Below are positions 17,448-55,161 of a stretch of DNA of 64,000 bases, in pieces. The stretch lies in assembly GCA_951406725.2 (NCBI GenBank), contig OX597837.1:21576001-21640000 (forward strand), read 5' to 3'. Under the pieces are notes generated by a model, which searched no databases, was not told where the DNA came from, and worked only from the letters and a program-made list of their open reading frames with translations. This DNA comes from Octopus vulgaris. Taxonomy: Eukaryota. The position numbers and the translations under genes were made by a program. Each line of letters opens with the position of its first letter. Within the stretch, counting starts at the first letter, position 1.

Positions 17448-19233
17448 TGAAAAAACAAGTCAAAAATAGAAAATGCTAAGATAATTTTATAGTGAATCTT
17501 TCAGTACCGGTTTCGGTCATTTTGAGACCTTTTCAACTGTAACGATTAAATAATTAAATTTAGAAAAATTAGAAGAAAAGTTTTTTTAAAGGAATATTTC
17601 TATAGTAGTGTTCAGATATGAGTGGCATTCTGCCTTTCTCTGACTCCCTTGTTTGCACTTGTGTGTTCGGGGTCGTTGTGAGTTCTTGGTAGGGTAGGAG
17701 AAGAAGAAGGAGGCTGATGTGGAGAGGGGGTGGGAGTGGGAAAATCTGGGGGAGCCCTGTTGGTCGTATTTTGCATGGTATTTTGCATGTAGGTATTAGG
17801 GACTTTAATTATTTTGTCTGTAGCTATCTTGCATGCGTTGCTTATTTTTTCACTTTTGTGGATCTTATGTATACCGTAGAATTGGCTAGTTTTACTTGTG
17901 AAATTGGTCATATAATCATATTCTTTGTCAGTGAGCCCTGCTTTGTATGGGTTTAATATGGATTTTAGTTCCCTCATTATTTTTTGTTGACTGTAGTTTT
18001 GTGTCTTCCAGCATAGAAAGTACCAAAGTTATGTAAAATGTCGTATCCATTAAGACAACAGCACTCCCTTTATCGGCCTCTTTGATTGTTATTGTTTTAT
18101 CTTGTTTTAATTTGTTCAACTCAGCCCATTCTTTTTTGCTGAAGTTTGGTTTGTGTTTTTGTTTGTGCATATGTTGATATGGGTAATTAGATATGTGGTC
18201 ACAGAAATCATCAAGTGTTTTGTTCTTACCTTTCGAGGGGGTGTAGTTACTCCTATTTCTGGCTAACGATTCGTCCTCGTTGTATTTATCGTATAGCTCC
18301 TCAGTAAGTCTTAATTTTCTGCAGAATTCTGCGATGTCTTCTTTCATTTCGTTGTAGTTGAGGAGCTGTGGGGTGGGTGTAAACTTGAGTCCTTTGGAAA
18401 GTATGTTTATTTGGTTTGCTGTTAATTCCTTGTGAGTTAGATTGATAATTTTTATTACTTTTGGTTCCTCCTGCTTGTTTGGTGCTATCTTGTGTCTCTG
18501 TGTTTGCGTATTGGGTCTAAAAAATGAATGCGGTGGTTGGGACGGTAGCTATTATATAGTTGTTCTTTGTTGATGTGGGGTCTCCTGTTGTGATTTATGG
18601 TGTGTGTTCTTGGAACAGTATTGAGGAGAGCATCCCGATATCCCATATTCGGGTGTGGTGTTCTAGGAGGCCTTCGTTGGTAATCATTGTAAGTGGTGTG
18701 GGTTTGTTGTGCATGGTTGTTTAACCGGTTGATGGGACGGAGATTTCGTTGGTAACTCTTTTGGGTGGGGATAAGGTTGCAGTATCTATGCTGTGGGTGT
18801 TGATTTATCCTTTCTCTGCTTGAAGTGGGGGTATTCCTGATATTGTAACGCTGGCTGCTTACAGAGTTAGGGTTAGGTCCTGTATTCTTTTTTTGAAAGT
18901 AGTGAAGGTTCCGATTTTTAGACAGGTGTGTATCGGTGTTTGGGTGTTGTTTTGGTTTTCTTATTTTCTGGAAAGGGTTGTTGGAGGCGTGCTCTGTTTG
19001 AAAGACGGCTTCATAGTCTGAGAACCAAATGGCGCTTTTCTCCCAGCGTTGGAGAGATTTTAGTTCTTCTTTTTCACAGTCCTCTTTCCATAGTTTGGAG
19101 AACTTCTCTTGATCTGAGCCTTGAGTCATTTTGCGAATTTCTTCGTTGATATCTTCATCGGTGGATTTTATTTTGTCCTCATTCGTTTGGGCCCTCAATT
19201 TCAGAAGTTCTATTGGGCCCTCAATTTCAGAAG

Positions 19234-19238
<5 letters not shown>
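17448..19238 (-). mobile_element. Internally deleted PLE B (upstream ORF, RT N-terminus, 3' end with ribozyme) between (TA)n runs
   Basis: RT frame reads INLTHKEL..ILSKGLKFTPTP...NFSKKEWAELNKLKQDKTITIKEADKGSAVVLMD, then a frameshifted YGIHKIHKS; about 26-bp tandem duplication at the 5' junction (19186-19238). Confidence 0.85.
17502..17540 (-). ncRNA. Minimal hammerhead ribozyme with U3-A8 variant core (PLE B)
   Basis: Sense strand: acag-TTGAAAA-ggtc tcaaaat gacc-GAAA-ccg-GTA^ctg. Confidence 0.7.
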
Positions 19239-19270
<32 letters not shown>

Positions 19271-21271: not shown

Positions 21272-24072
21272 CTAAAGGTGACCACGTAGGGGTGGGCGGG
21301 GGGAACTGAAAATTGGAAGGGTGGGAAGTGGAGTTTGGCGGTGTGCGCTCAACATCCGAGTTAGAAATGTGAAAAGGTATAGATATAGGGAAATAAAGAG
21401 TCTAGATAGGAAGAATGTAGGTGTAGGAGAAGAAATATATAGGGAAAAAAAACATATATGGGAGACAAAATGTGTATATATAGGAGGAAGATGCAGGAAA
21501 ATATATATGCACATACACACACACATATATATATATACACATATACATACACATATATGTATATACATATACACGCACATATAGGAAAGCGGGATGCGCT
21601 GGAGCCGACAGGTTGCACCGGGTGGGAGGAAATTGCCTAAGTATTTGAAAGTATTAATAAGTTTGTGTATACAGGATGGTTTGAACTCTGACCTTTTGTT
21701 AATAAGATTGTGTTTGTCTTTGAATTTCAAGATATTCAGGAGTTCTACACAACATAGTTGGCATCCTGCTCTATTATTTAAATAAGGTGCAGCTGATCCG
21801 ATGATGGACCACCTGAGTTTGAAACTTATGCATTTGTCTTTTAATTCCCAAATTTTTTTAGAAAGAGAGGTGCTGTTAGCTTTATGTCTGTGTTTCAGCA
21901 AGGACCGGTGGTTGTAGTATCTGGATTTCCAGGAGGTTGAGCAACCTATGTAGGTGAGTGTGTTAAACTGGGTACTCACCTCACATGAATATATTACGTT
22001 TTTCGCCCTACACTCGGATGCACATATGCAGTTGCAGTGCATTGTATTACTTGGTCGCGTGCTGTTAATCCCAGGCGGAGGTGTTGCATTACGTGTGGGG
22101 GCGTTGATATCCTCCTGGTTGTTGATGGGTGTGGTATTGCCTCTGTTGTGTTGGCGGGTGTTATTACTAACTGTTTGGGTAATATGGCTGCCAGTCTGAT
22201 TATATTGTCTACTATCTGGATGAGGGGGGTTCTGTTGGTCGCTATAGCTTGCTCTTGATCTAGCTGTTCTAATATTAATATAGTTATGTTTAGCTATGAG
22301 GCAGCTCATGTTGGGCAGGGTAGAGTAGGAAATCCTAATGGTTTTGTTGGAGAAGATACTTCTATACTTATGGGTGGGTGGGAAGTTGTTGGAAATGATA
22401 GAGAATATTCTCTTACATAATTTACCCCTAACTGCTAAGTTGTATGGTATGTTGAACCATATATATTTGCGTAATCTACTATTATCGCTTCTATTTCTCC
22501 TAATAGGATCTATATTGCTCTCGTCGGGAGGGTTACTATTGTTTGCTATTCTATTAGTTCGCCTATTTCCTATACGTTGTTTAGAATTTAAATTAGAATT
22601 ATTGTTAGCATGAGTTGAGTGCGGAGTTCGATTATAATTGGGAGTTTTACGGCCGACGGACGTTCCTGGGTGGTCTACATATGATATTCTCTGGTTATAC
22701 CCTGCACTATAGAGAGCCTGGTTGTAGTGTTGTGCGTGATTATTGAAAATTTCTCTGTTAGAGGATAGTTTTGTAAGTCTGTCTGAGATGGCTTGGACCG
22801 TGGTGCTAATTATACAGGGTGGATGGTTGGAAGAGGTGTGGATGTATTTGGTTGTTTCTTCGGGTTTCCTATACGGGTGGTGAAGGTGCTTATTCAAGTC
22901 TAACGTAACATCTAAGAAGTTTACTATTTTAGTATTGGTCATAAATTCTAGTTTAAGATTGAAGGATTTGAAAAAAAGCCTGATCTTTTTCCTAATTCTT
23001 TCTAGTTTACTCCTATTGTTGGTGGGGTATATGAAGAGAGCGTCATCCCTGTATAGACCCCCCTGAAGATCCAGTACCTCGGAGAAAAGCTTCTTGAGCA
23101 GGTAGGCCCTGACCAAGTCAGTCACCTGAGCTGAATCGCTCGAGCCCATAGCCACATCAAAATTTTCGGGGGTATCGGATCTGGTCCAAAGCCTACCGTC
23201 GAATTCTATTATGGTTTTTCTAGCTAATAGTATTATGTCAATTTTTTCTCTGTCTATGAGCGAAAGGCTGCGAGCATATATAAGGGATTTGTTAAGTAAG
23301 ATGGGGGATATACTGGCGTAGTAGTTAGCTATGTCGAACTGGATGAATGAGTAGTTGGGTCTGTTGGTGATTGTGTTAAACCATTCTAGCACATCGTCGG
23401 TGTCAATCCATAGTTGGAGTGGGATGTGGGGTTTGATGCGTGGGATCACCATGTCCAGGATAGTCTTACTAAGTCTGCCGATATCCGATTTAGTCGGACA
23501 GATTAATCGTACTCCTACATTATCCGGGAAGTCTTTCTTATGGTCCTTACTAGTAATTTTGGGTACCTGTGGTTTGATCGGTTCCGTTCTGTCCAGGAGG
23601 TCTAATTTGGTCATAACTTCCTTGATTTAGTAGTTAATTTCCTTAAGGTTATCCGTAGAAGTAGTTTTATATTTTTTGCTAAGTTCCCTCATGATGAGCG
23701 ATTTGTAGGTTTGGTAGTCCAACCTATACCAGTTCCCAGTCTTGTCGGCGGGTATGATAAGACTATCATCGTTCCTAAGTGAATGCAGGAAATCTTTAAG
23801 GCTCCTTAAGTGGGTGTTGGAAATGGTCTTATGCTTACTAATGTTGATGTTGGTAATGAGGTCGATTAAGGCTTTTTCAAAATTTTCCAGTGCGTAGTTA
23901 GAGGGTGGGTTTCTTCTGCTTTTAAATATTTTCCTGTGTGCTATTTCTTCTTGGTTAGAGTTGGGGTTGCTTTTCCCTGGGTTATCGAAATGGTAGGCTG
24001 CCCACCTAATTCTTCTAATAAAGTCTGTGGTCCGGTGGATGAGGGTCGTCGTGTAAGTTTTGTCGGAGTGGT
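21272..24072 (-). pseudogene. PLE C RT+GIY-YIG ORF, slightly 5'-truncated, one in-frame stop
   Basis: DFIRRIRW..IFKSRRNPP..PADKTGNWY upstream of a TAA at 23627-23629, in frame with FDIANYYASI, FDVAMGSSDSAQ, GLYRDD, NFLDVTL, CNC..C..VIY..YIG..CQLC..E..LINKRSE..CIH; the frame runs on into microsatellite. Confidence 0.9.
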
Positions 24073-24795
24073 GTGCGTGTATTTACATGCATGTATATAT
24101 ATGTATATATATGTGTATATATATGTATGTGGATATATATATATATATATACGCTTGTGTGTTTATGTATATGTAGGTATGTAGATGTATGTGTATGTAT
24201 GTAGGTATATATACATATGTGTAAATAGGTATACATGTATATGTTTATATGTATGTATCCGTCTGTATGATGGGTAATTGCACGTATATATATTTATTAT
24301 TTATTATTTGAGTATGCATGTATGTATATATGTATATGTTTGTATGCATGTATACATATGTATATGCATACACATACACATCTATATATACATACATGCA
24401 TACAAACATATACATATATACATACATGCATACTCAAATAATAAATAATAAATATATATACGTGCAATTACCCATCATACAGACGGATACATACATATAA
24501 ACATACACATGTATACCTATTTACACATATGTATATATACCTACATACATACACATACATACCTACATATACATAAACACACAAGCGTATATATATATAT
24601 ATATCCACATACATATATATACACATATATATACATATATATACACGCACACACATACATATGTATATTCATACCTACACCCATACATATCTATACATGT
24701 GTACATATACAATATGTGAATAGTCTTAGGAGAGAAGGTAATTGGGGGTGCTGAGGGAACGGTGGGGGTGGGGGGGTGTTGTGGATGGGGTGTCG

Positions 24796-25242
24796 TCAAT
24801 CGGGTTGCCGGGTGGGTCTGTAGTTTTTGTAGTTTGCATAAATTTTGTGCATACAATTTGGGGAGTGTTCCGAGATCTTGTTGAGGAGAGGGCTTTTGGC
24901 GAACAAGATCTCCAGGCTCTCAGAAATGCAAAGGTCACAGCAGGTATGGCCTCCTGTGTACGAACGCGCCCTCTGTAGTAGTCTCCACTTGAAGGGAATG
25001 GAGTTCCTTTTAAGGTACCAGATGTGGGCGGCGAGAGTAGTTTGGTTAGATTTGTCAGGTCGCCGGAACGAATGTGTGTGGGCGTACCAACGGGTCTTAA
25101 AGCTGTTTGACGTCATTCCGATGTACGATTTTCTTTTATCATCGGGGCCTGATCGTACCTCGCATGTGTAGACGAGGTCCTTCTGTAGGCAGTTGTTGTT
25201 GAGGGGGCAAGTGGTTTTATCAGGGCAGTTGCAATTGCTTTC
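24796..25242 (-). pseudogene. 5'-truncated PLE: Cys-rich linker plus GIY-YIG endonuclease only (probably family A)
   Basis: ESNCNCPDKTTCPLNNNCLQKDLVYTCEV...SYIGMTSNSFKTRWYAHTHSF...LAAHIWYLK...CDLCISE...LLNKISE..CMH. Confidence 0.88.
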
Positions 25243-26221: not shown

Positions 26222-26340
26222 TGTTTACAGCACCTAGATTTCTCAAATGGTCACCCATCTAAGTACTAACTAGGCTCGACATTGCTTAACTTCAGTGATC
26301 AGACGAGAACAGGTGTTTCCAAAGTGATATGGCTGTAGAC
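26222..26340 (-). pseudogene. Solitary, diverged 5S rRNA copy
   Basis: Reverse complement GTCTACAGCCATATCAC...TCTCGTCTGATCACTGAAGTTAAGCAATGTCGAGCCTAGTTAGTACTTAGATGGGTGACC...GTGCTGTAAAC: full-length 5S layout with many transition-type changes. Confidence 0.85.
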
Positions 26341-46633: not shown

Positions 46634-47708
46634 CCTTCTATATAATAAATATATATATATACATATATACGACAGGCTTCTTTCAGTTTCCGTCTACCAA
46701 ATCCACTCACAAGGCTTTGGTCGGCCTGAGGCTATAGTAGAAGATACTTGCCCAAGGTGCCACGCAGTGGGACTGAACCTGGAACCATGTGGTTGGTAAA
46801 CAAGCTACTTACCACACAGCCACCCTGCGCCTATCTTGAACATTTAAAGAAATTTAACATAGACATTCTTCAGAAGTATGAAAGTTAGCCGTTTGCAAAT
46901 AGCATTTTCAACTGTTACAAGTAGTGTTTTAAAAAGAAGTTGTATTAACAGGTTCAATGAAGTCGCTTGGGGGTGGGCCAAATGGCTTCATTTCATTTAT
47001 CATTTTATCTGATTCACCCTTTCCATCCATTTTTTTTTTTTGCTTTCTGTACCCACCATGTGCTGTCCCCTCTGGGTTAGGTCCCATGTGGTTAATAAAG
47101 AAAGAGAGTTCCTTGTCTTGTTTCTCTAAAGGACTCCCAGCATGCAGTTTTGCTCTATCGTGTTAACGCTGGCCTTTCTTCAAGGTGCTTCTTACTGTCT
47201 GCTGGTGCCAAATACTCAGGTAACTGGATTGATGCATCCCTGTGGTTAATATTGGTGGTCTACTTCGTGTCTCTATTGCCCTCCGAGTGATTGCTGATGT
47301 ATGCATGGGTTTGATTTGTCATTGTGTCAGGCTCCTCGACTCCACAGGCCTCCATGGCTTTTCTTGCCACCTGAATGCTGGTCACTTCACACGTCATTTG
47401 AACTCAGAATGAAATGGCAGACGAAATACCACTAAGCAATTCGCCCTGCATGCTAACGTTTATGCCAGCCTGCCTTATATATATATATATATATATATCA
47501 TGTGAAATAGAAAGATGAATAATCTTGTAGTAGATTAATCAAAAGTTTAACCGATACCTTAGTAGCAAAAATCACAGCAGTAAAACAGCACGGTTGGAGG
47601 TACAACCATATGGTGTTGCAACCGTGCGTTGGTGCGGATAATTGAAATTAGAACATTATTGGTGAATTGAAGAAATGGAGCTGAACGCAGATTGAACAGA
47701 AATCGTTT

Positions 47709-47802
47709 TATTTCATTCTACACGTGTTTCGAAAGGCACAAATTACCAAAATCCGATGGAATAATGGGACCATATTGTGTCTTTCTCTTCAGGAAGAAAA
47801 TA
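47709..47802 (-). ncRNA. Type I hammerhead ribozyme (PLE E, copy 1)
   Basis: Sense strand: tattttcttc-CTGAAGA-gaaagacac...tgtgcctttc-GAAA-cacgt-GTA^gaatgaaata. Confidence 0.85.
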
Positions 47803-48385
47803 GGAAATCCGTTGGAAAAACAAAAACAGAACAGAGGCGGAGCAAAAACAAATCGAACTATGCTCCTAAGAGCCCATGGCGAAACTGTTTATCAGTGTAT
47901 GTTGAGAACCGGTGGCTGAAGAATTCAACGGGTCAGGCATCGGTCAATCATGTGGATGAGGGGGCGTAGATGTTCTTTGTGACCGAGAATAAAGTTCTAA
48001 CTATTTAAGGAATATTGGATGTTTTATAAGGGGCGAGAAAAAATCTACTTAGAGACGTGTGTGTGTGTATACTGTTCTATATACGTGTGTGTTGGCGTAG
48101 GGGTAGAAAACATTTTTTGTGTACGTGTGTGCGTTTGATCGTTCGGCTGTCAGTGGCTACTGCCGTGATGACCGTTGGGTGGCAGAAAAAAATATATATC
48201 ATGTTTTATGTGTGTGTGTGTTCTCATTTAAGCCTGCCTTGTCAAGGAAACCCCCGCTGTGAAAAAACCAAGCCCCGTTTGTCTTACAGGAGTAATTCCC
48301 CTTGCAGTGGTTAATCGTAGATATCTTAAAGGCTATTTCAGAATTTGTTACCAAGGGCTATGGGTGCCGGTATTATTTATAAACG

Positions 48386-51073
48386 CTATTTAAAAGCCAG
48401 ATAAGTGTAACGCCGCCAATGGGGGCATCGAAAAGCCGACTGTAAAAGCCCGTTTACCATCCGGCCTCTAGCAAACAAAATATGGAAGAGTTCGGAGACA
48501 CAAAGGTTGCACTGCCTTCTGCCCCTATCAAATGGGAGGGCCACCGACAAAATTGACCATTCCAGCCTGTAGCTTAAGTTCGTATCCTTCAGTCGCCATA
48601 TTAGCTTACTGAGTCCCGTGGTCTGGCGCTTGTTCATGTCCCGAAAAGTTGCGTAATGGTTGGAGACACGCAAAGACAATCTTGAGGATGAGGCCCCTAC
48701 ATAAGTGAAGACATCTGAGTCCGTGTAAACCTTGCATTGGTAGACGGCGTTTTTGATCTTGGAGTTCGCCGACGTGAATCTAATTCTGCTAGGATTAGTT
48801 TCTGAAATTAGAACTGCGTTCCTGTCACTATATTCGTTCCGAGACCTGCAGCCGCTTACTACTCTATTTTCCACTACGTCACTATTAACTATAGGAATAA
48901 CCCCTGATTCTCCACTATCTATCAAAGTGCTGTCATTGCTACTGCCCGTGGTGCTGCTATTGCGGGAAATGATGCTGGGGATGCTATTGGGGCTCTCTAC
49001 CCTACTCCCATTGTTACCGTCAACCACAACACCCCTATTTATAACTATACCCCTAGTGGGTACTCCCTGGCTGGAGCTGAGATTATGTGTCACTGTACTG
49101 GCTCTCATATCATTATTACTACTATAATTATTCCTACTGAGCATTAAACCGGGAGCGGAAGAGGCTGTGCCTCCGGAAAAAGGTGATAGGGTCTTAGTAA
49201 GTAGCCTATTATTATGGGAGGCGATTATCTGGGCGAGGTTTTTAGTGTTGGAGAAAGCTATCCTAACTTTATGCGAGTTAACCGTGGAGTAATATTTGGA
49301 ATTTCTGGGGAAGTTATTGGCGATGGCTTGTCTAAACATGAGGGGGAGGTTAGTTCTAATCTGCTTACCAAAGGGGATTACAAACCATATATGCTTATTC
49401 CTATCAGTGTGGTGGATCGGGACGCCAGCTCTCGCATTCGGGTGGGTGATTCTCGGATGAATGACGGGTCTTGGGTTAGTGTAAGACCTCCCGGACCGAT
49501 AATTATCCTTGTTCGCTAAATTAAATGCGGGAGCGACTACCCCGGCATCCACCGCGCTCCCGTCCTTACTTAAAATGTTAATGTTATTATATACGGCCCT
49601 ATCCTGATGACCGAATGATGGCATCGGAAGGGCCGGATCAATATAAATTACCTTCTGCCTATAACCGGCCTTGGATAGTGCGGCGTTATAAAATTCCGCC
49701 TTCTGCATAAAAATATCGGCACTGGCGGACAAGCCAGACAATCTTAGAGAGATGTTTTTAACCAAATTGTCTGTTACGGTTTTGGCATGATTTGAGAAGA
49801 CACTGACATACTTCAAATTAGTGGAAGGCTTATGGTAAGGGCAGTATGAGTCGCTATTAAGGTTAAGTGTAACGTCTAGGAAATTGGCCTTGGTGAGTTC
49901 ATTATCAAAAACTATACTCATGCCCATTCTATTAAAAAACCTAGCTAACCTGCTCTTAGTTTTCTGCACTATTCTGTTCGTGGTGTTTTGCAGGTAAAAC
50001 AGACAATCGTCACGATACAGGCCGCCCGCGATCTCCGGGAATTGGTCGGACAATTCGTAGAGAATATATATTCCGACCAAATCGGCTATCTGCGCACTAT
50101 CCGAACTACCCATAGGCACATCAAATTCATTGGGAGTATCTTTACGGATCCACAACTTATTATCAAACTTAATAAACGATTTCCTGGCAACTAAAATGAT
50201 ATCTATCTCTTCTCTGGTGAGGCCAGCCTTGTTGTGAGCATGCCAGAGGGCCTTATTTAGCACACTAGGGTTAATCGAGGGGTAGAAGCTGGCGATATCA
50301 AACTGAATGAACCTAGTACGGTTCTTATTGGGGATGGAAGAGAACCACTTCACTACCTGCGAGGAGTTGGCCCAGAGGCTGAGCTTCAGCTTGTTTACTA
50401 AACTAGGGATATATTTATCTAAAATGTACTTACTGATTATCCCGATATCAGATCTAGCAGGGCATATGAGTCTTAGCGCTGGGTTGGTGTGGAAGTTCGG
50501 TTTATGGTCCTTCACTATAAATCTGGGTTGCTTAGGGCTAAGCGGCTGAGTTCTCATTTGAATTCGGTGTTTAAATATTATTTCCTTAATTTCCAAGTTT
50601 ACCTTCCTCAGGGTACTCCAATTGGTTTTTCTATAATTTTTCTTGATCTCTTTACCGAGTAAATCTAGGTACTGCTTAATGGGCATCTTGTATGTGTTCC
50701 TGGTCTTGTCGGACTGGACCAGGACTCCGTCCGTTCTATTAATGTCCTTGGTAATTTTATCTAGGTATCTGAGGTGGGCATTTCTCCTGGGTGACTTCCT
50801 GAACTTAATCTTTCTAACTATGTCCCACAAGTCGTCCTCAAACTTCTTCAGTCTTGGGTTAGGTGGCGGCGTATCCAATGTTTTAAAAAGCCGGCCGTAT
50901 TCGGACGATGCTGTTGTCCGGTTCGATTTTAGATCTTCGTTCTCGTGGAAGAAAATGAGCCATCTTATCCGGTTTATGAATGCGTTGGTTTTACAAACCA
51001 ACTCCTTAAGGAAGGCATCCTTTGGTGGTATAGGAATATCCTTAAGGGACGCATCAATCTCGAACAACTCCAT
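48386..51073 (-). CDS. Intact PLE polyprotein (reverse transcriptase + C-terminal GIY-YIG endonuclease), 895 aa
   Basis: SDKT, FDIASFYPSI, FDVPMGSSDSAQIADLVG, GLYRDD, NFLDVTL, YHKP..Y..SNH; endonuclease AVY..YVG..R..H..W..CNLC.SE..CPH. Confidence 0.95.
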   Translation of the reverse strand: MELFEIDASLKDIPIPPKDAFLKELVCKTNAFINRIRWLIFFHENEDLKSNRTTASSEYGRLFKTLDTPPPNPRLKKFEDDLWDIVRKIKFRKSPRRNAHLRYLDKITKDINRTDGVLVQSDKTRNTYKMPIKQYLDLLGKEIKKNYRKTNWSTLRKVNLEIKEIIFKHRIQMRTQPLSPKQPRFIVKDHKPNFHTNPALRLICPARSDIGIISKYILDKYIPSLVNKLKLSLWANSSQVVKWFSSIPNKNRTRFIQFDIASFYPSINPSVLNKALWHAHNKAGLTREEIDIILVARKSFIKFDNKLWIRKDTPNEFDVPMGSSDSAQIADLVGIYILYELSDQFPEIAGGLYRDDCLFYLQNTTNRIVQKTKSRLARFFNRMGMSIVFDNELTKANFLDVTLNLNSDSYCPYHKPSTNLKYVSVFSNHAKTVTDNLVKNISLRLSGLSASADIFMQKAEFYNAALSKAGYRQKVIYIDPALPMPSFGHQDRAVYNNINILSKDGSAVDAGVVAPAFNLANKDNYRSGRSYTNPRPVIHPRITHPNARAGVPIHHTDRNKHIWFVIPFGKQIRTNLPLMFRQAIANNFPRNSKYYSTVNSHKVRIAFSNTKNLAQIIASHNNRLLTKTLSPFSGGTASSAPGLMLSRNNYSSNNDMRASTVTHNLSSSQGVPTRGIVINRGVVVDGNNGSRVESPNSIPSIISRNSSTTGSSNDSTLIDSGESGVIPIVNSDVVENRVVSGCRSRNEYSDRNAVLISETNPSRIRFTSANSKIKNAVYQCKVYTDSDVFTYVGASSSRLSLRVSNHYATFRDMNKRQTTGLSKLIWRLKDTNLSYRLEWSILSVALPFDRGRRQCNLCVSELFHILFARGRMVNGLLQSAFRCPHWRRYTYLAFK

Positions 51074-51330
51074 TATTGGTATCGGTTAAAGTAGCAGTTT
51101 CTTGACGAAGCGGTATGTATCATGTGAAATAGAAAGATGAATAATCTTGTAGTAGATTAATCAAAAGTTTAACCGATACCTTAGTAGCAAAAATCACAGC
51201 AGTAAAACAGCACGGTTGGAGGTACAACCATATGGTGTTGCAACCGTGCGTTGGTGCGGATAATTGAAATTAGAACATTATTGGTGAATTGAAGAAATGG
51301 AGCTGAACGCAGATTGAACAGAAATCGTTT

Positions 51331-51424
51331 TATTTCATTCTACACGTGTTTCGAAAGGCACAAATTACCAAAATCCGATGGAATAATGGGACCATATTGT
51401 GTCTTTCTCTTCAGGAAGAAAATA
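51331..51424 (-). ncRNA. Type I hammerhead ribozyme (PLE E, copy 2)
   Basis: Identical motif 3622 bp from copy 1. Confidence 0.85.
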
Positions 51425-52007
51425 GGAAATCCGTTGGAAAAACAAAAACAGAACAGAGGCGGAGCAAAAACAAATCGAACTATGCTCCTAAGAGCCCATG
51501 GCGAAACTGTTTATCAGTGTATGTTGAGAACCGGTGGCTGAAGAATTCAACGGGTCAGGCATCGGTCAATCATGTGGGTGAGGGGGCGTAGATGTTCTTT
51601 GTGACCGAGAATAAAGTTCTAACTATTTAAGGAATATTGGATGTTTTATAAGGGGCGAGAAAAAATCTACTTAGAGACGTGTGTGTGTGTATACTGTTCT
51701 ATATACGTGTGTGTTGGCGTAGGGGTAGAAAACATTTTTTGTGTACGTGTGTGCGTTTGATCGTTCGGCTGTCAGTGGCTACTGCCGTGATGACCGTTGG
51801 GTGGCAGAAAAAAATATATATCATGTTTTATGTGTGTGTGTGTTCTCATTTAAGCCTGCCTTGTCAAGGAAACCCCCGCTGTGAAAAAACCAAGCCCCGT
51901 TTGTCTTACAGGAGTAATTCCCCTTGCAGTGGTTAATCGTAGATATCTTAAAGGCTATTTCAGAATTTGTTACCAAGGGCTATGGGTGCCGGTATTATTT
52001 ATAAACG

Positions 52008-54509
52008 CTATTTAAAAGCCAGATAAGTGTAACGCCGCCAATGGGGGCATCGAAAAGCCGACTGTAAAAGCCCGTTTACCATCCGGCCTCTAGCAAACAA
52101 AATATGGAAGAGTTCGGAGACACAAAGGTTGCACTGCCTTCTGCCCCTATCAAATGGGAGGGCCACCGACAAAATTGACCATTCCAGCCTGTAGCTTAAG
52201 TTCGTATCCTTCAGTCGCCATATTAGCTTACTGAGTCCCGTGGTCTGGCGCTTGTTCATGTCCCGAAAAGTTGCGTAATGGTTGGAGACACGCAAAGACA
52301 ATCTTGAGGATGAGGCCCCTACATAAGTGAAGACATCTGAGTCCGTGTAAACCTTGCATTGGTAGACGGCGTTTTTGATCTTGGAGTTCGCCGACGTGAA
52401 TCTAATTCTGCTAGGATTAGTTTCTGAAATTAGAACTGCGTTCCTGTCACTATATTCGTTCCGAGACCTGCAGCCGCTTACTACTCTATTTTCCACTACG
52501 TCACTATTAACTATAGGAATAACCCCTGATTCTCCACTATCTATCAAAGTGCTGTCATTGCTACTGCCCGTGGTGCTGCTATTGCGGGAAATGATGCTGG
52601 GGATGCTATTGGGGCTCTCTACCCTACTCCCATTGTTACCGTCAACCACAACACCCCTATTTATAACTATACCCCTAGTGGGTACTCCCTGGCTGGAGCT
52701 GAGATTATGTGTCACTGTACTGGCTCTCATATCATTATTACTACTATAATTATTCCTACTGAGCATTAAACCGGGAGCGGAAGAGGCTGTGCCTCCGGAA
52801 AAAGGTGATAGGGTCTTAGTAAGTAGCCTATTATTATGGGAGGCGATTATCTGGGCGAGGTTTTTAGTGTTGGAGAAAGCTATCCTAACTTTATGCGAGT
52901 TAACCGTGGAGTAATATTTGGAATTTCTGGGGAAGTTATTGGCGATGGCTTGTCTAAACATGAGGGGGAGGTTAGTTCTAATCTGCTTACCAAAGGGGAT
53001 TACAAACCATATATGCTTATTCCTATCAGTGTGGTGGATCGGGACGCCAGCTCTCGCATTCGGGTGGGTGATTCTCGGATGAATGACGGGTCTTGGGTTA
53101 GTGTAAGACCTCCCGGACCGATAATTATCCTTGTTCGCTAAATTAAATGCGGGAGCGACTACCCCGGCATCCACCGCGCTCCCGTCCTTACTTAAAATGT
53201 TAATGTTATTATATACGGCCCTATCCTGATGACCGAATGATGGCATCGGAAGGGCCGGATCAATATAAATTACCTTCTGCCTATAACCGGCCTTGGATAG
53301 TGCGGCGTTATAAAATTCCGCCTTCTGCATAAAAATATCGGCACTGGCGGACAAGCCAGACAATCTTAGAGAGATGTTTTTAACCAAATTGTCTGTTACG
53401 GTTTTGGCATGATTTGAGAAGACACTGACATACTTCAAATTAGTGGAAGGCTTATGGTAAGGGCAGTATGAGTCGCTATTAAGGTTAAGTGTAACGTCTA
53501 GGAAATTGGCCTTGGTGAGTTCATTATCAAAAACTATACTCATGCCCATTCTATTAAAAAACCTAGCTAACCTGCTCTTAGTTTTCTGCACTATTCTGTT
53601 CGTGGTGTTTTGCAGGTAAAACAGACAATCGTCACGATACAGGCCGCCCGCGATCTCCGGGAATTGGTCGGACAATTCGTAGAGAATATATATTCCGACC
53701 AAATCGGCTATCTGCGCACTATCCGAACTACCCATAGGCACATCAAATTCATTGGGAGTATCTTTACGGATCCACAACTTATTATCAAACTTAATAAACG
53801 ATTTCCTGGCAACTAAAATGATATCTATCTCTTCTCTGGTGAGGCCAGCCTTGTTGTGAGCATGCCAGAGGGCCTTATTTAGCACACTAGGGTTAATCGA
53901 GGGGTAGAAGCTGGCGATATCAAACTGAATGAACCTAGTACGGTTCTTATTGGGGATGGAAGAGAACCACTTCACTACCTGCGAGGAGTTGGCCCAGAGG
54001 CTGAGCTTCAGCTTGTTTACTAAACTAGGGATATATTTATCTAAAATGTACTTACTGATTATCCCGATATCAGATCTAGCAGGGCATATGAGTCTTAGCG
54101 CTGGGTTGGTGTGGAAGTTCGGTTTATGGTCCTTCACTATAAATCTGGGTTGCTTAGGGCTAAGCGGCTGAGTTCTCATTTGAATTCGGTGTTTAAATAT
54201 TATTTCCTTAATTTCCAAGTTTACCTTCCTCAGGGTACTCCAATTGGTTTTTCTATAATTTTTCTTGATCTCTTTACCGAGTAAATCTAGGTACTGCTTA
54301 ATGGGCATCTTGTATGTGTTCCTGGTCTTGTCGGACTGGACCAGGACTCCGTCCGTTCTATTAATGTCCTTGGTAATTTTATCTAGGTATCTGAGGTGGG
54401 CATTTCTCCTGGGTGACTTCCTGAACTTAATCTTTCTAACTATGTCCCACAAGTCGTCCTCAAACTTCTTCAGTCTTGGGTTAGGTGGCGGCGTATCCAA
54501 TGTTTTAAA
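52008..54509 (-). CDS. 5'-truncated second copy of the PLE E ORF
   Basis: Same protein as 48386-51073 from about residue 64 onward; cut off by the inverted pseudo-LTR. Confidence 0.88.
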   Translation of the reverse strand, partial: FKTLDTPPPNPRLKKFEDDLWDIVRKIKFRKSPRRNAHLRYLDKITKDINRTDGVLVQSDKTRNTYKMPIKQYLDLLGKEIKKNYRKTNWSTLRKVNLEIKEIIFKHRIQMRTQPLSPKQPRFIVKDHKPNFHTNPALRLICPARSDIGIISKYILDKYIPSLVNKLKLSLWANSSQVVKWFSSIPNKNRTRFIQFDIASFYPSINPSVLNKALWHAHNKAGLTREEIDIILVARKSFIKFDNKLWIRKDTPNEFDVPMGSSDSAQIADLVGIYILYELSDQFPEIAGGLYRDDCLFYLQNTTNRIVQKTKSRLARFFNRMGMSIVFDNELTKANFLDVTLNLNSDSYCPYHKPSTNLKYVSVFSNHAKTVTDNLVKNISLRLSGLSASADIFMQKAEFYNAALSKAGYRQKVIYIDPALPMPSFGHQDRAVYNNINILSKDGSAVDAGVVAPAFNLANKDNYRSGRSYTNPRPVIHPRITHPNARAGVPIHHTDRNKHIWFVIPFGKQIRTNLPLMFRQAIANNFPRNSKYYSTVNSHKVRIAFSNTKNLAQIIASHNNRLLTKTLSPFSGGTASSAPGLMLSRNNYSSNNDMRASTVTHNLSSSQGVPTRGIVINRGVVVDGNNGSRVESPNSIPSIISRNSSTTGSSNDSTLIDSGESGVIPIVNSDVVENRVVSGCRSRNEYSDRNAVLISETNPSRIRFTSANSKIKNAVYQCKVYTDSDVFTYVGASSSRLSLRVSNHYATFRDMNKRQTTGLSKLIWRLKDTNLSYRLEWSILSVALPFDRGRRQCNLCVSELFHILFARGRMVNGLLQSAFRCPHWRRYTYLAFK

Positions 54510-54978
54510 ATGTTTTTTTCACAGCGGGGGGTTTCCTTGACAAGGCAGGCTTAAATGAGAACACACACACACATAAAACATGATATATATTTTTTTCTGC
54601 CACCCAACGGTCATCACGGCAGTAGCCACTGACAGCCGAACGATCAAACGCACACACGTACACAAAAATGTTTTCTACCCCTACGCCAACACACACGTAT
54701 ATAGAACAGTATACACACACACACGTCTCTAAGTAGATTTTTTCTCGCCCCTTATAAAACATCCAATATTCCTTAAATAGTTAGAACTTTATTCTCGGTC
54801 ACAAAGAACATCTACGCCCCCTCATCCACATGATTGACCGATGCCTGACCCGTTGAATTCTTCAGCCACCGGTTCTCAACATACACTGATAAACAGTTTC
54901 GCCATGGGCTCTTAGGAGCATAGTTCGATTTGTTTTTGCTCCGCCTCTGTTCTGTTTTTGTTTTTCCAACGGATTTCC

Positions 54979-55072
54979 TATTTTCTTCCTGAAGAGAAAG
55001 ACACAATATGGTCCCATTATTCCATCGGATTTTGGTAATTTGTGCCTTTCGAAACACGTGTAGAATGAAATA
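54979..55072 (+). ncRNA. Type I hammerhead ribozyme (PLE E, inverted pseudo-LTR)
   Basis: CTGAAGA 54989-54995, GAAA 55051-55054, cleavage triplet GTA 55060-55062. Confidence 0.85.
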
Positions 55073-55127
55073 AAACGATTTCTGTTCAATCTGCGTTCAG
55101 CTCCATTTCTTCAATTCACCAATAATG

Positions 55128-55161
<34 letters not shown>

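Follow-up and report, generated by a model that had tools for sequence, protein, structure and literature searches.

A 64,000-nucleotide (nt) stretch of the Octopus vulgaris genome (GenBank assembly GCA_951406725.2, contig OX597837.1, positions 21,576,001 to 21,640,000) was analyzed and is referred to as the window, with coordinates counted from its first letter. On its minus strand the window carries a fragment of a Penelope-like element (PLE), in which an upstream open reading frame (ORF1) overlaps the reverse transcriptase (RT) frame. In relatives the RT frame lies at the same -1 offset from ORF1, a slippery heptamer stands in ORF1 phase within the overlap, ORF1 is under purifying selection, and a GIY-YIG endonuclease (EN) is encoded. 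The best reading of this arrangement, and a very probable one from sequence comparison, is a programmed -1 ribosomal frameshift that would yield both ORF1 and an ORF1-RT-EN fusion. An ORF1-RT fusion made in this way had been proposed in a first-pass annotation of the window, and the comparative evidence (offset, heptamer, and ORF1 selection) now supports it.

The junction was as the first-pass annotation described it. The ORF1 frame ends at 18485 with a TAG at 18487-18485, the RT frame lies at -1 relative to ORF1 and opens after a TAG at 18551-18549, and the two share a 64-nt overlap (18548-18485). Within this overlap ORF1 reads ...ATT CAT TTT TTA GAC..., with TTT at 18523-21 and TTA at 18520-18, so that T TTT TTA is correctly phased, and the RT frame passes over the slip site as TTT TTT AGA (18524-16). 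The first ATG of the RT frame is at 18347, downstream of the conserved block INLTHKEL..ILSKGLKFTPTP. The RT frame showed 67% identity across 162 amino acids (aa) to the Octopus sinensis protein P0001. The window element is a dead copy: it is truncated at its 5' end at 19238, beside (TA)n, its RT frame is broken near 18005, and RT similarity is lost at 17798, before the RT core. Comparison with full-length homologues indicates that about 170-200 codons are missing from the N-terminal end of its ORF1. A second copy of this ORF1-RT PLE family was not found within the 64-kb window, and the copy lies among microsatellites and repeats resembling short interspersed nuclear elements (SINEs).

Some canonical heptamer fell in phase in 6% of 20,000 shuffles of the window overlap, and the element strand contains eight such heptamers, in any phase, in 1,511 nt. 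For these reasons the heptamer of the window alone is not significant, and the relatives decide the question. Forty-six related loci were fetched, 16 without an RT N-terminus were set aside, and 30 were scored. An in-phase heptamer of the form X XXY YYZ, the motif definition for -1 frameshifting (PMC8915115), was present upstream of the conserved block in 21 of the 30 loci (15 T6A, 5 T6G, and 1 T TTA AAC). Together with the window, these loci represent 17 lineages that are about 40-50% identical in RT; the lineages were taken from a quick tree that does not include L017, L026, and L046 (under 60 aa in frame), and L017 and L026 were assigned by hand. The L017 locus has T TTA AAC, another canonical slippery site and the coronavirus heptamer (U UUA AAC; PMC8168617), at the same place and with the same stop distance. 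This swap is the most telling single case because the sequence changed, yet its slipperiness and phase were kept. In 21 of 22 sequences the heptamer followed the opening of the RT frame by 0-17 codons. Furthermore, T6 runs upstream of the GLKF block (26 anchors) fell 18 times in the slippery phase and once in each of the others, against a background of 9/5/3 in 37,429 nt of RT bodies. Among the remaining loci, the contig of L007 begins inside the T run, L034 has five T and is decayed, L024 is truncated at the RT start, L029 and L032 belong to a separate single-ORF clade, and L041, L044, and L046 are distant or decayed.

The same signature was found in proteins. Phe-Leu occurred in the last 42 aa of 22 of the 27 ORF1 homologues of at least 280 aa, compared with 4 of 54 control windows; three of the 27 appear to be the ORF1 of L015, L023, and L027. 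In addition, from the same site on, a Mytilus ORF1 tail and a Mytilus RT-frame stretch were codon-compatible in -1 overlap over 32 codons. No long protein with ORF1 and RT fused was found among 547 and 4,598 candidates, which is weak evidence, and neither viral contigs nor a second genome scan yielded relatives or further relatives, respectively.

The first-pass annotation had named a family consensus with a different T-run length, fusing the two ORFs, as the result that would overturn its proposal. Relatives showed the opposite, with the -1 offset and the heptamer conserved across lineages. An offset produced by a copy-specific or assembly indel in a single-ORF element might seem plausible for a decayed copy with a further frame break, the more so as relatives with a single long ORF exist (L029, L032, and P0023). 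However, the same offset and heptamer recur in 16 other lineages, and the single-ORF relatives form a separate clade (support 100) whose N-termini have no similarity to ORF1. Contigs of four sequencing runs, three of them only presumed to be RNA, were also aligned to 17520-19212, and gap-free contigs crossed the ORF1/RT junction in all four. One of these, a DNA contig of run X19, was about 85% identical (32 differences in 208 nt) and gap-free over the junction, and no row with an indel in the T run was present among the 12 shown of 13. At the family level, a copy-specific indel is refuted, and we give this explanation virtually no credence for the window.

Slippage during transcription, in which the polymerase adds an extra U on the T run in some transcripts and thereby joins the frames, would fit the observation that exactly six T form the conserved core in 20 of 21 loci. 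Transcriptional slippage usually occurs on runs of 8-9 or more, for which six T is short. Such slippage also needs no codon phase relative to ORF1, and L017 has only three T, which makes this mechanism extremely improbable.

The first-pass annotation had also offered TTTTTTAG as a splice acceptor, with an intron joining an upstream exon to the RT frame. PLEs keep introns (PMC8557442), T6AG is present in 13 of the 21 loci and in the window, and ORF1 and RT are joined in three gene models of Mytilus (P0009, P0106, and P0118). However, this alternative fails in 8 of the 21 loci, where the AG after the T run is absent, and it predicts neither the fixed phase to ORF1 nor the T TTA AAC swap. The three gene models join the ORFs at differing places, as predictions would. 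Moreover, contigs of the three presumed-RNA runs crossed the site unspliced, although contigs drop rare forms, and none of the 15 joints shown (of 17) ended there. A splice acceptor at this site is very improbable.

Several observations weigh against frameshifting. Five loci have T6G, in which Z is G, and this is non-canonical for a slippery heptamer (PMC8915115). The L030 locus kept ORF1 and the -1 offset with T TTT CGA at the heptamer place; at 700-760 of this locus, a stop stands 11 codons on, which may reflect a P-site-only slip at a slow codon, or decay. Two X19 DNA contigs over the region contain 11 and 5 gap letters at unlisted places. With regard to RNA structure, the 55 nt after the window heptamer gave no fold (minimum free energy 0), the mean folding z of the 22 sequences after the heptamer was just -0.65, and no covarying helix stood out across the family in a column-pairing test (p 0.24). 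Finally, 6 of the 11 closest RT proteins start with a Met 8-12 residues before the conserved block, and two substitutions within the overlap alter the product of the RT frame but are silent for ORF1.

The last two observations favor separate translation of RT-EN, starting at an AUG of its own close to where ORF1 ends and relying on reinitiation or leaky scanning, with the heptamer vestigial or secondary at least in the octopus/bivalve subclade. Consistent with this, Met1 of P0001 aligns to the window ATA at 18488, the ORF1 tail of P0033 and the start of the RT protein P0004 form a compatible overlap that extends for 11 codons from that Met, and L013 and L037 have an ATG at the same codon 13 (counting the heptamer Phe as 1). 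In contrast, no ATG precedes the conserved (I/V)xN block in 17 of the 21 loci (4 have one), and the protein set is biased towards Met starts because gene callers begin ORFs at Met by rule. TGG at codon 13 also occurs without a preceding A (L006, L022, and L028), and the same subclade keeps Phe-Leu (P0032, P0033, and P0038). A start at its own AUG is improbable as the general explanation; since the closest relatives keep Phe-Leu, both routes may coexist in this subclade. The first-pass claim that the RT frame has no early ATG stood for this copy and for the majority of family members; a Met at the position of ATA 18488 is, however, common among the closest relatives.

The upstream product itself belongs to a protein family. 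With a window ORF1 query of 106 residues, 78 homologues were found at E <= 0.001, those with names being from Mytilus and Pinctada (20 proteins looked up), and full-length members were 350-470 aa. The family hidden Markov model (HMM) matched window positions 19216-18515 with an independent E-value of 5e-36; the core HMM was built from an alignment that includes the window row. Predicted models of two homologues showed a long-helix core with a predicted local distance difference test score (pLDDT) above 90 and a disordered tail. The ratio of nonsynonymous to synonymous substitution (dN/dS) in the core was 0.10 for L008/L036 and 0.04 for L007/L012 (dS near saturation), the two closest pairs, and 0.27-0.39, or with saturated dS, for four distant pairs. 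Absence of purifying selection on ORF1, which the first-pass annotation had listed as evidence against its proposal, was not what these close pairs (0.04-0.10) indicated. The ORF1-core profile matched 15 of the 46 RT-bearing loci, and the ORF1 alignment was too divergent to serve for locus scans.

Annotation searches gave little. No Pfam match was obtained for the window ORF1, and eight homologues yielded one DUF4292 match barely above the cut-off, two under it, and none to a Gag family. None of 29 in the ORF1 search matched a PHROG, a PDB sequence search with ORF1 returned coiled-coil-type matches only, Foldseek on the ORF1 models gave no match at E <= 0.001, and the best VIA hit of these models (Z 9.2) was to generic three-helix bundles. 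A language model (Atlas) gave a likeness of ORF1 to Retrotrans_gag of 0.90 (102/256 features), which is an unconfirmed lead only, and a second Atlas search gave scores below 0.8. An esterase identity was rejected for ORF1, which has no convincing Pfam or PHROG family match. Altogether, ORF1 is best described as a conserved, selected protein family without annotation and with a predicted long-helix core.

Under programmed frameshifting, most ribosomes would translate ORF1 (about 350-470 aa), with its N-terminal coiled-coil-like helices, long-helix core, and disordered tail often ending Arg-rich, and would terminate within a few codons of passing the slip site. The minority, stepping back by one base on U UUU UUA, would read on through RT and GIY-YIG, producing a fusion of roughly 1,150-1,250 aa. 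Structural protein would then be abundant and enzyme scarce, in a proportion resembling that of gag and pol. We infer that the ribosome slips, that the functional enzyme is the fusion, and that an RNA-protein particle is built from ORF1.

The first-pass remark that no obvious stimulatory hairpin follows the heptamer holds, because shuffled sequences fold better than the 98 nt downstream (z +1.0). In -1 frameshift signals, a stimulatory stem-loop or pseudoknot lies 5-9 nt downstream of the slip site. Clearly stable hairpins were present only in L006 and L026/L040, 2-5 nt after the heptamer, and a scan for H-type pseudoknots gave no shared structure. The G+C content was 0.58 in the 30 nt after the slip site versus 0.26 at +60 to +90. 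A feature that did recur was the position of the ORF1 stop: 7 of 17 lineages have it at codon 13, against a null of about 0.04 per position, and so do 14 of 31 ORF1 proteins. Codon 13 was a stop or TGG in 14 of 20 DNA rows (TGG in 5) and Trp in three proteins. A binomial test of the codon-13 stop gave 3e-5 at p 0.06, a value that ignores shared ancestry and is therefore overstated. Between the heptamer and this stop, the sequence was otherwise barely alignable and without shared structure.

The ORF1 stop lies about one ribosome length downstream of the slip site, 11 codons past the slippery A-site codon; disome spacing is about 10 codons. It is conceivable, though rather doubtful, that the terminating ribosome and not an RNA fold acts as the roadblock for -1 frameshifting. 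A ribosome paused at the ORF1 stop would then hold the next one on the slip site, and RT output would be tied to the ribosome load of ORF1. Stop position affects -1 frameshifting in SARS-CoV-2 (PMC8168617), and trailing ribosomes can alter frameshifting (PMC8915115). On the other hand, the stop stands at another position in 10 of the 17 lineages, codon 13 is TGG in five rows, the count is inflated by common descent, and a stop close by can also exert its effect by allowing a structure to refold (PMC8168617). If a terminating-ribosome roadblock proved true, it would give endonuclease-bearing PLEs a gag-pol-like module with a helical ORF1 and a new kind of stimulator.

The assignment of the element follows from its RT and from its relatives. 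A PLE-type RT with N-terminal GxKF and DKG motifs is present in the window, and among RT proteins with names the nearest come from Octopus sinensis, Argonauta, and Mytilus. Full-length relatives have RVT_1 plus, at the C terminus, a GIY-YIG endonuclease, which passed the Pfam cut-off in P0007 and P0005; the window copy ends before it. The linker of the relatives is CxxxxCxxC, with a spacing that by eye resembles what Craig et al. show for Neptune in Fig. S2, where a long spacer typical of Neptune precedes GIY. Given the GIY-YIG domain together with this linker, the element is regarded as an endonuclease-bearing (EN+), Neptune-like one and not as Athena. The window element is thus classified by sequence as a fragment of an EN+, Neptune-like PLE with two ORFs; the RT tree was built from sequences that include no named Neptune reference. 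Relatives also showed partial tandems, with ORF1 starting downstream of RT-EN in L007, L012, L016, and L026. Two animal-type PLE contigs among the relatives, L002 and L001, stood inside bacterial records (a Bacteroidota metagenome-assembled genome and a SUP05 assembly), a placement that is likely host contamination.

Table 1. Features of the two-ORF PLE fragment in the window (pLTR, pseudo-long terminal repeat).
Feature	Position	Strand	Remark
Degenerate hammerhead-like motif in high-depth 3' piece	17486..17550	-	Possibly pLTR of this or another PLE
RT N-terminus continued in another frame (YG.HKIHKS)	17798..18007	-	Similarity stops before RT core
RT frame, N-terminal part (INL, GLKFTPTP, EADKG motifs)	18008..18548	-	30 homologues
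ORF1 remnant, 242 codons	18485..19213	-	Frame ends ...HRIHFLDPIRKHRDTR*
ORF1 stop TAG, codon 13 (heptamer Phe = 1; nt +31 to +33)	18485..18487	-	
RT-frame ATA	18486..18488	-	Gap-free alignment to Met1 of Octopus sinensis protein P0001
Slippery heptamer T TTT TTA, ORF1 phase	18518..18524	-	Conserved in 21/30 related loci
Low-complexity N/Q/R/H/P-rich tail, predicted disordered	18525..18955	-	pLDDT below 50 in same region of homologues
C-terminal half of conserved ORF1 core, long helices (predicted), W..C..EE..S..RW motif	18956..19225	-	Core HMM positions 72-161
26-nt tandem duplication at 5' junction of truncated copy	19187..19238	-	
(TA)n tract flanking 5'-truncation point	19239..19262	.	Likely insertion target (inferred)

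The coordinates of the element are given in Table 1. A (TA)n tract is the preferred PLE target according to a legend of Craig et al. 2021 (PMC8557442), and the 26 letters duplicated at the 5' junction recur as an insertion in a contig of run X3. Past the RT break, the 3' piece (17795-17460, minus strand) may be the pLTR of the family or another element. The summed depth of DNA contigs at 17520-17690 was far above that of the ORF region, and contigs of two runs ran on into RT at the similarity break of the window (loose ends at 17795). The hammerhead-like motif in this piece was a weak match to Rfam HH9 (17550-17486; 22.9 bits, E 0.068, under the gathering score of 52). Another hammerhead-like core, with a long stem II loop, lies at 19571-19496 on the minus strand, about 260 nt upstream of the truncated ORF1, and is probably the pLTR of another PLE.

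Two other PLEs were noticed on the minus strand of the window. A very young second family at 47492-55132 forms a tandem that is 99.9% identical over 3,397 nt, with a 623-nt inverted repeat, an 899-codon ORF, and hammerhead-like motifs at 51414, 47792, and 54989; its RIRW, DKT, and MGSSDS motifs fit the Hydra clade per Craig et al. (PMC8557442). The third PLE, at 21272-25200, is also Hydra-like (DKT, MGSSDS, and CNCICASEC linker) and has an in-frame stop (23627-29), an Asn-rich insert, and an upstream endonuclease fragment (24847-25194). In addition, 26222-26340 on the minus strand matched 5S rRNA with 103.6 bits, above the gathering score, and is either an isolated copy or a SINE head.

Athena/Terminon elements reportedly have an ORF1 upstream of RT that is joined to it by a frameshift (Arkhipova et al. 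2017). The first-pass annotation had taken upstream ORFs as a feature of such elements and EN+ PLEs as single-ORF. The second statement agrees with how canonical EN+ PLEs are described, but upstream ORFs are not confined to Athena/Terminon: an esterase ORF is in print for Penelope/Neptune-like elements (PMC3905857, PMC5408684), and two ORFs are in print for a Neptune element of killifish (PMC12602865). Two-ORF PLEs have also been described as EN-lacking (PMC6431247). The legend of Fig. 1 in Craig et al. 2021 (PMC8557442) states that a frameshift with a pseudoknot can set ORF1 apart, and the legend of the preprint says that this is "often" so. The available passages of PMC3846280, PMC6515669, and bioRxiv 10.64898/2026.07.22.740005 added nothing on ORF1 frameshifts. 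Beyond the Craig legend, no description of this ORF1 family or of the heptamer in EN+ PLEs was found in the literature, with subscription journals, Repbase, and bioRxiv supplements outside the search. The frameshift concept is therefore partly in print, and what is new is the unannotated ORF1 family together with, in EN+ PLEs, a slip site and a stop spacing that are deeply conserved.

EN+ PLEs are usually annotated with a single ORF and thought to have no structural protein, whereas in this family ORF1 is under selection and the recoding site is conserved. Database RT proteins of the family therefore probably lack part of their N-terminus, and parts of transposons probably account for many mollusc "uncharacterized proteins" and gene models that combine ORF1 and RT. 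In five Mytilus gene models (P0019, P0106, P0002, P0009, and P0118), one of them named Toll-like receptor 4 and one Ig-like, PLE ORF1 or RT is fused to other exons or the ORFs are joined; these are probably annotation artefacts. The relatives also offer a naturally occurring set of 17 slip sites that have diverged (U6A, U6G, U UUA AAC, and an odd U UUU CGA) and have no RNA stimulator in common, which makes the role of stop-codon position or ribosome queuing in animal -1 frameshifting directly testable.

Compared with known systems, the element shares with Neptune EN+ PLEs (PMC8557442) the GxKF/DKG RT and the (TA)n flank, as well as, in its relatives, the C-terminal GIY-YIG, the CX2-5CxxC linker, and perhaps the partial tandem arrangement. 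It differs from canonical EN+ PLEs, described as single-ORF (PMC8557442), in having two ORFs at a fixed -1 offset. The killifish Neptune (PMC12602865) likewise has an upstream ORF without a database match, but its two ORFs are treated as non-overlapping, and "frameshift" is nowhere mentioned in the accessible text. The PLE ORF1 frameshift of the Fig. 1 legend (PMC8557442) comes with a pseudoknot, whereas no conserved pseudoknot was found here. Athena/Terminon elements share a coiled-coil-type ORF1 upstream of RT and a frameshift joint; Athena is telomeric, the 3' end of such elements carrying telomeric repeats in reverse complement, and has no endonuclease fused to RT, whereas close relatives here have GIY-YIG. 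Unlike retroviral gag-pol, the element has no protease or integrase, and the likeness of ORF1 to retroviral Gag is the unconfirmed language-model lead, without a fold match. On the 3' side of the slip site no conserved stem-loop or pseudoknot was found, in contrast to retroviral gag-pol and to coronavirus ORF1a/1b. With both systems the element shares a heptamer in the upstream phase, an enzyme at -1, and a zero-frame stop close behind; U UUU UUA is the slip site of human immunodeficiency virus type 1, and the U UUA AAC of coronavirus ORF1a/1b is also used by one relative here.
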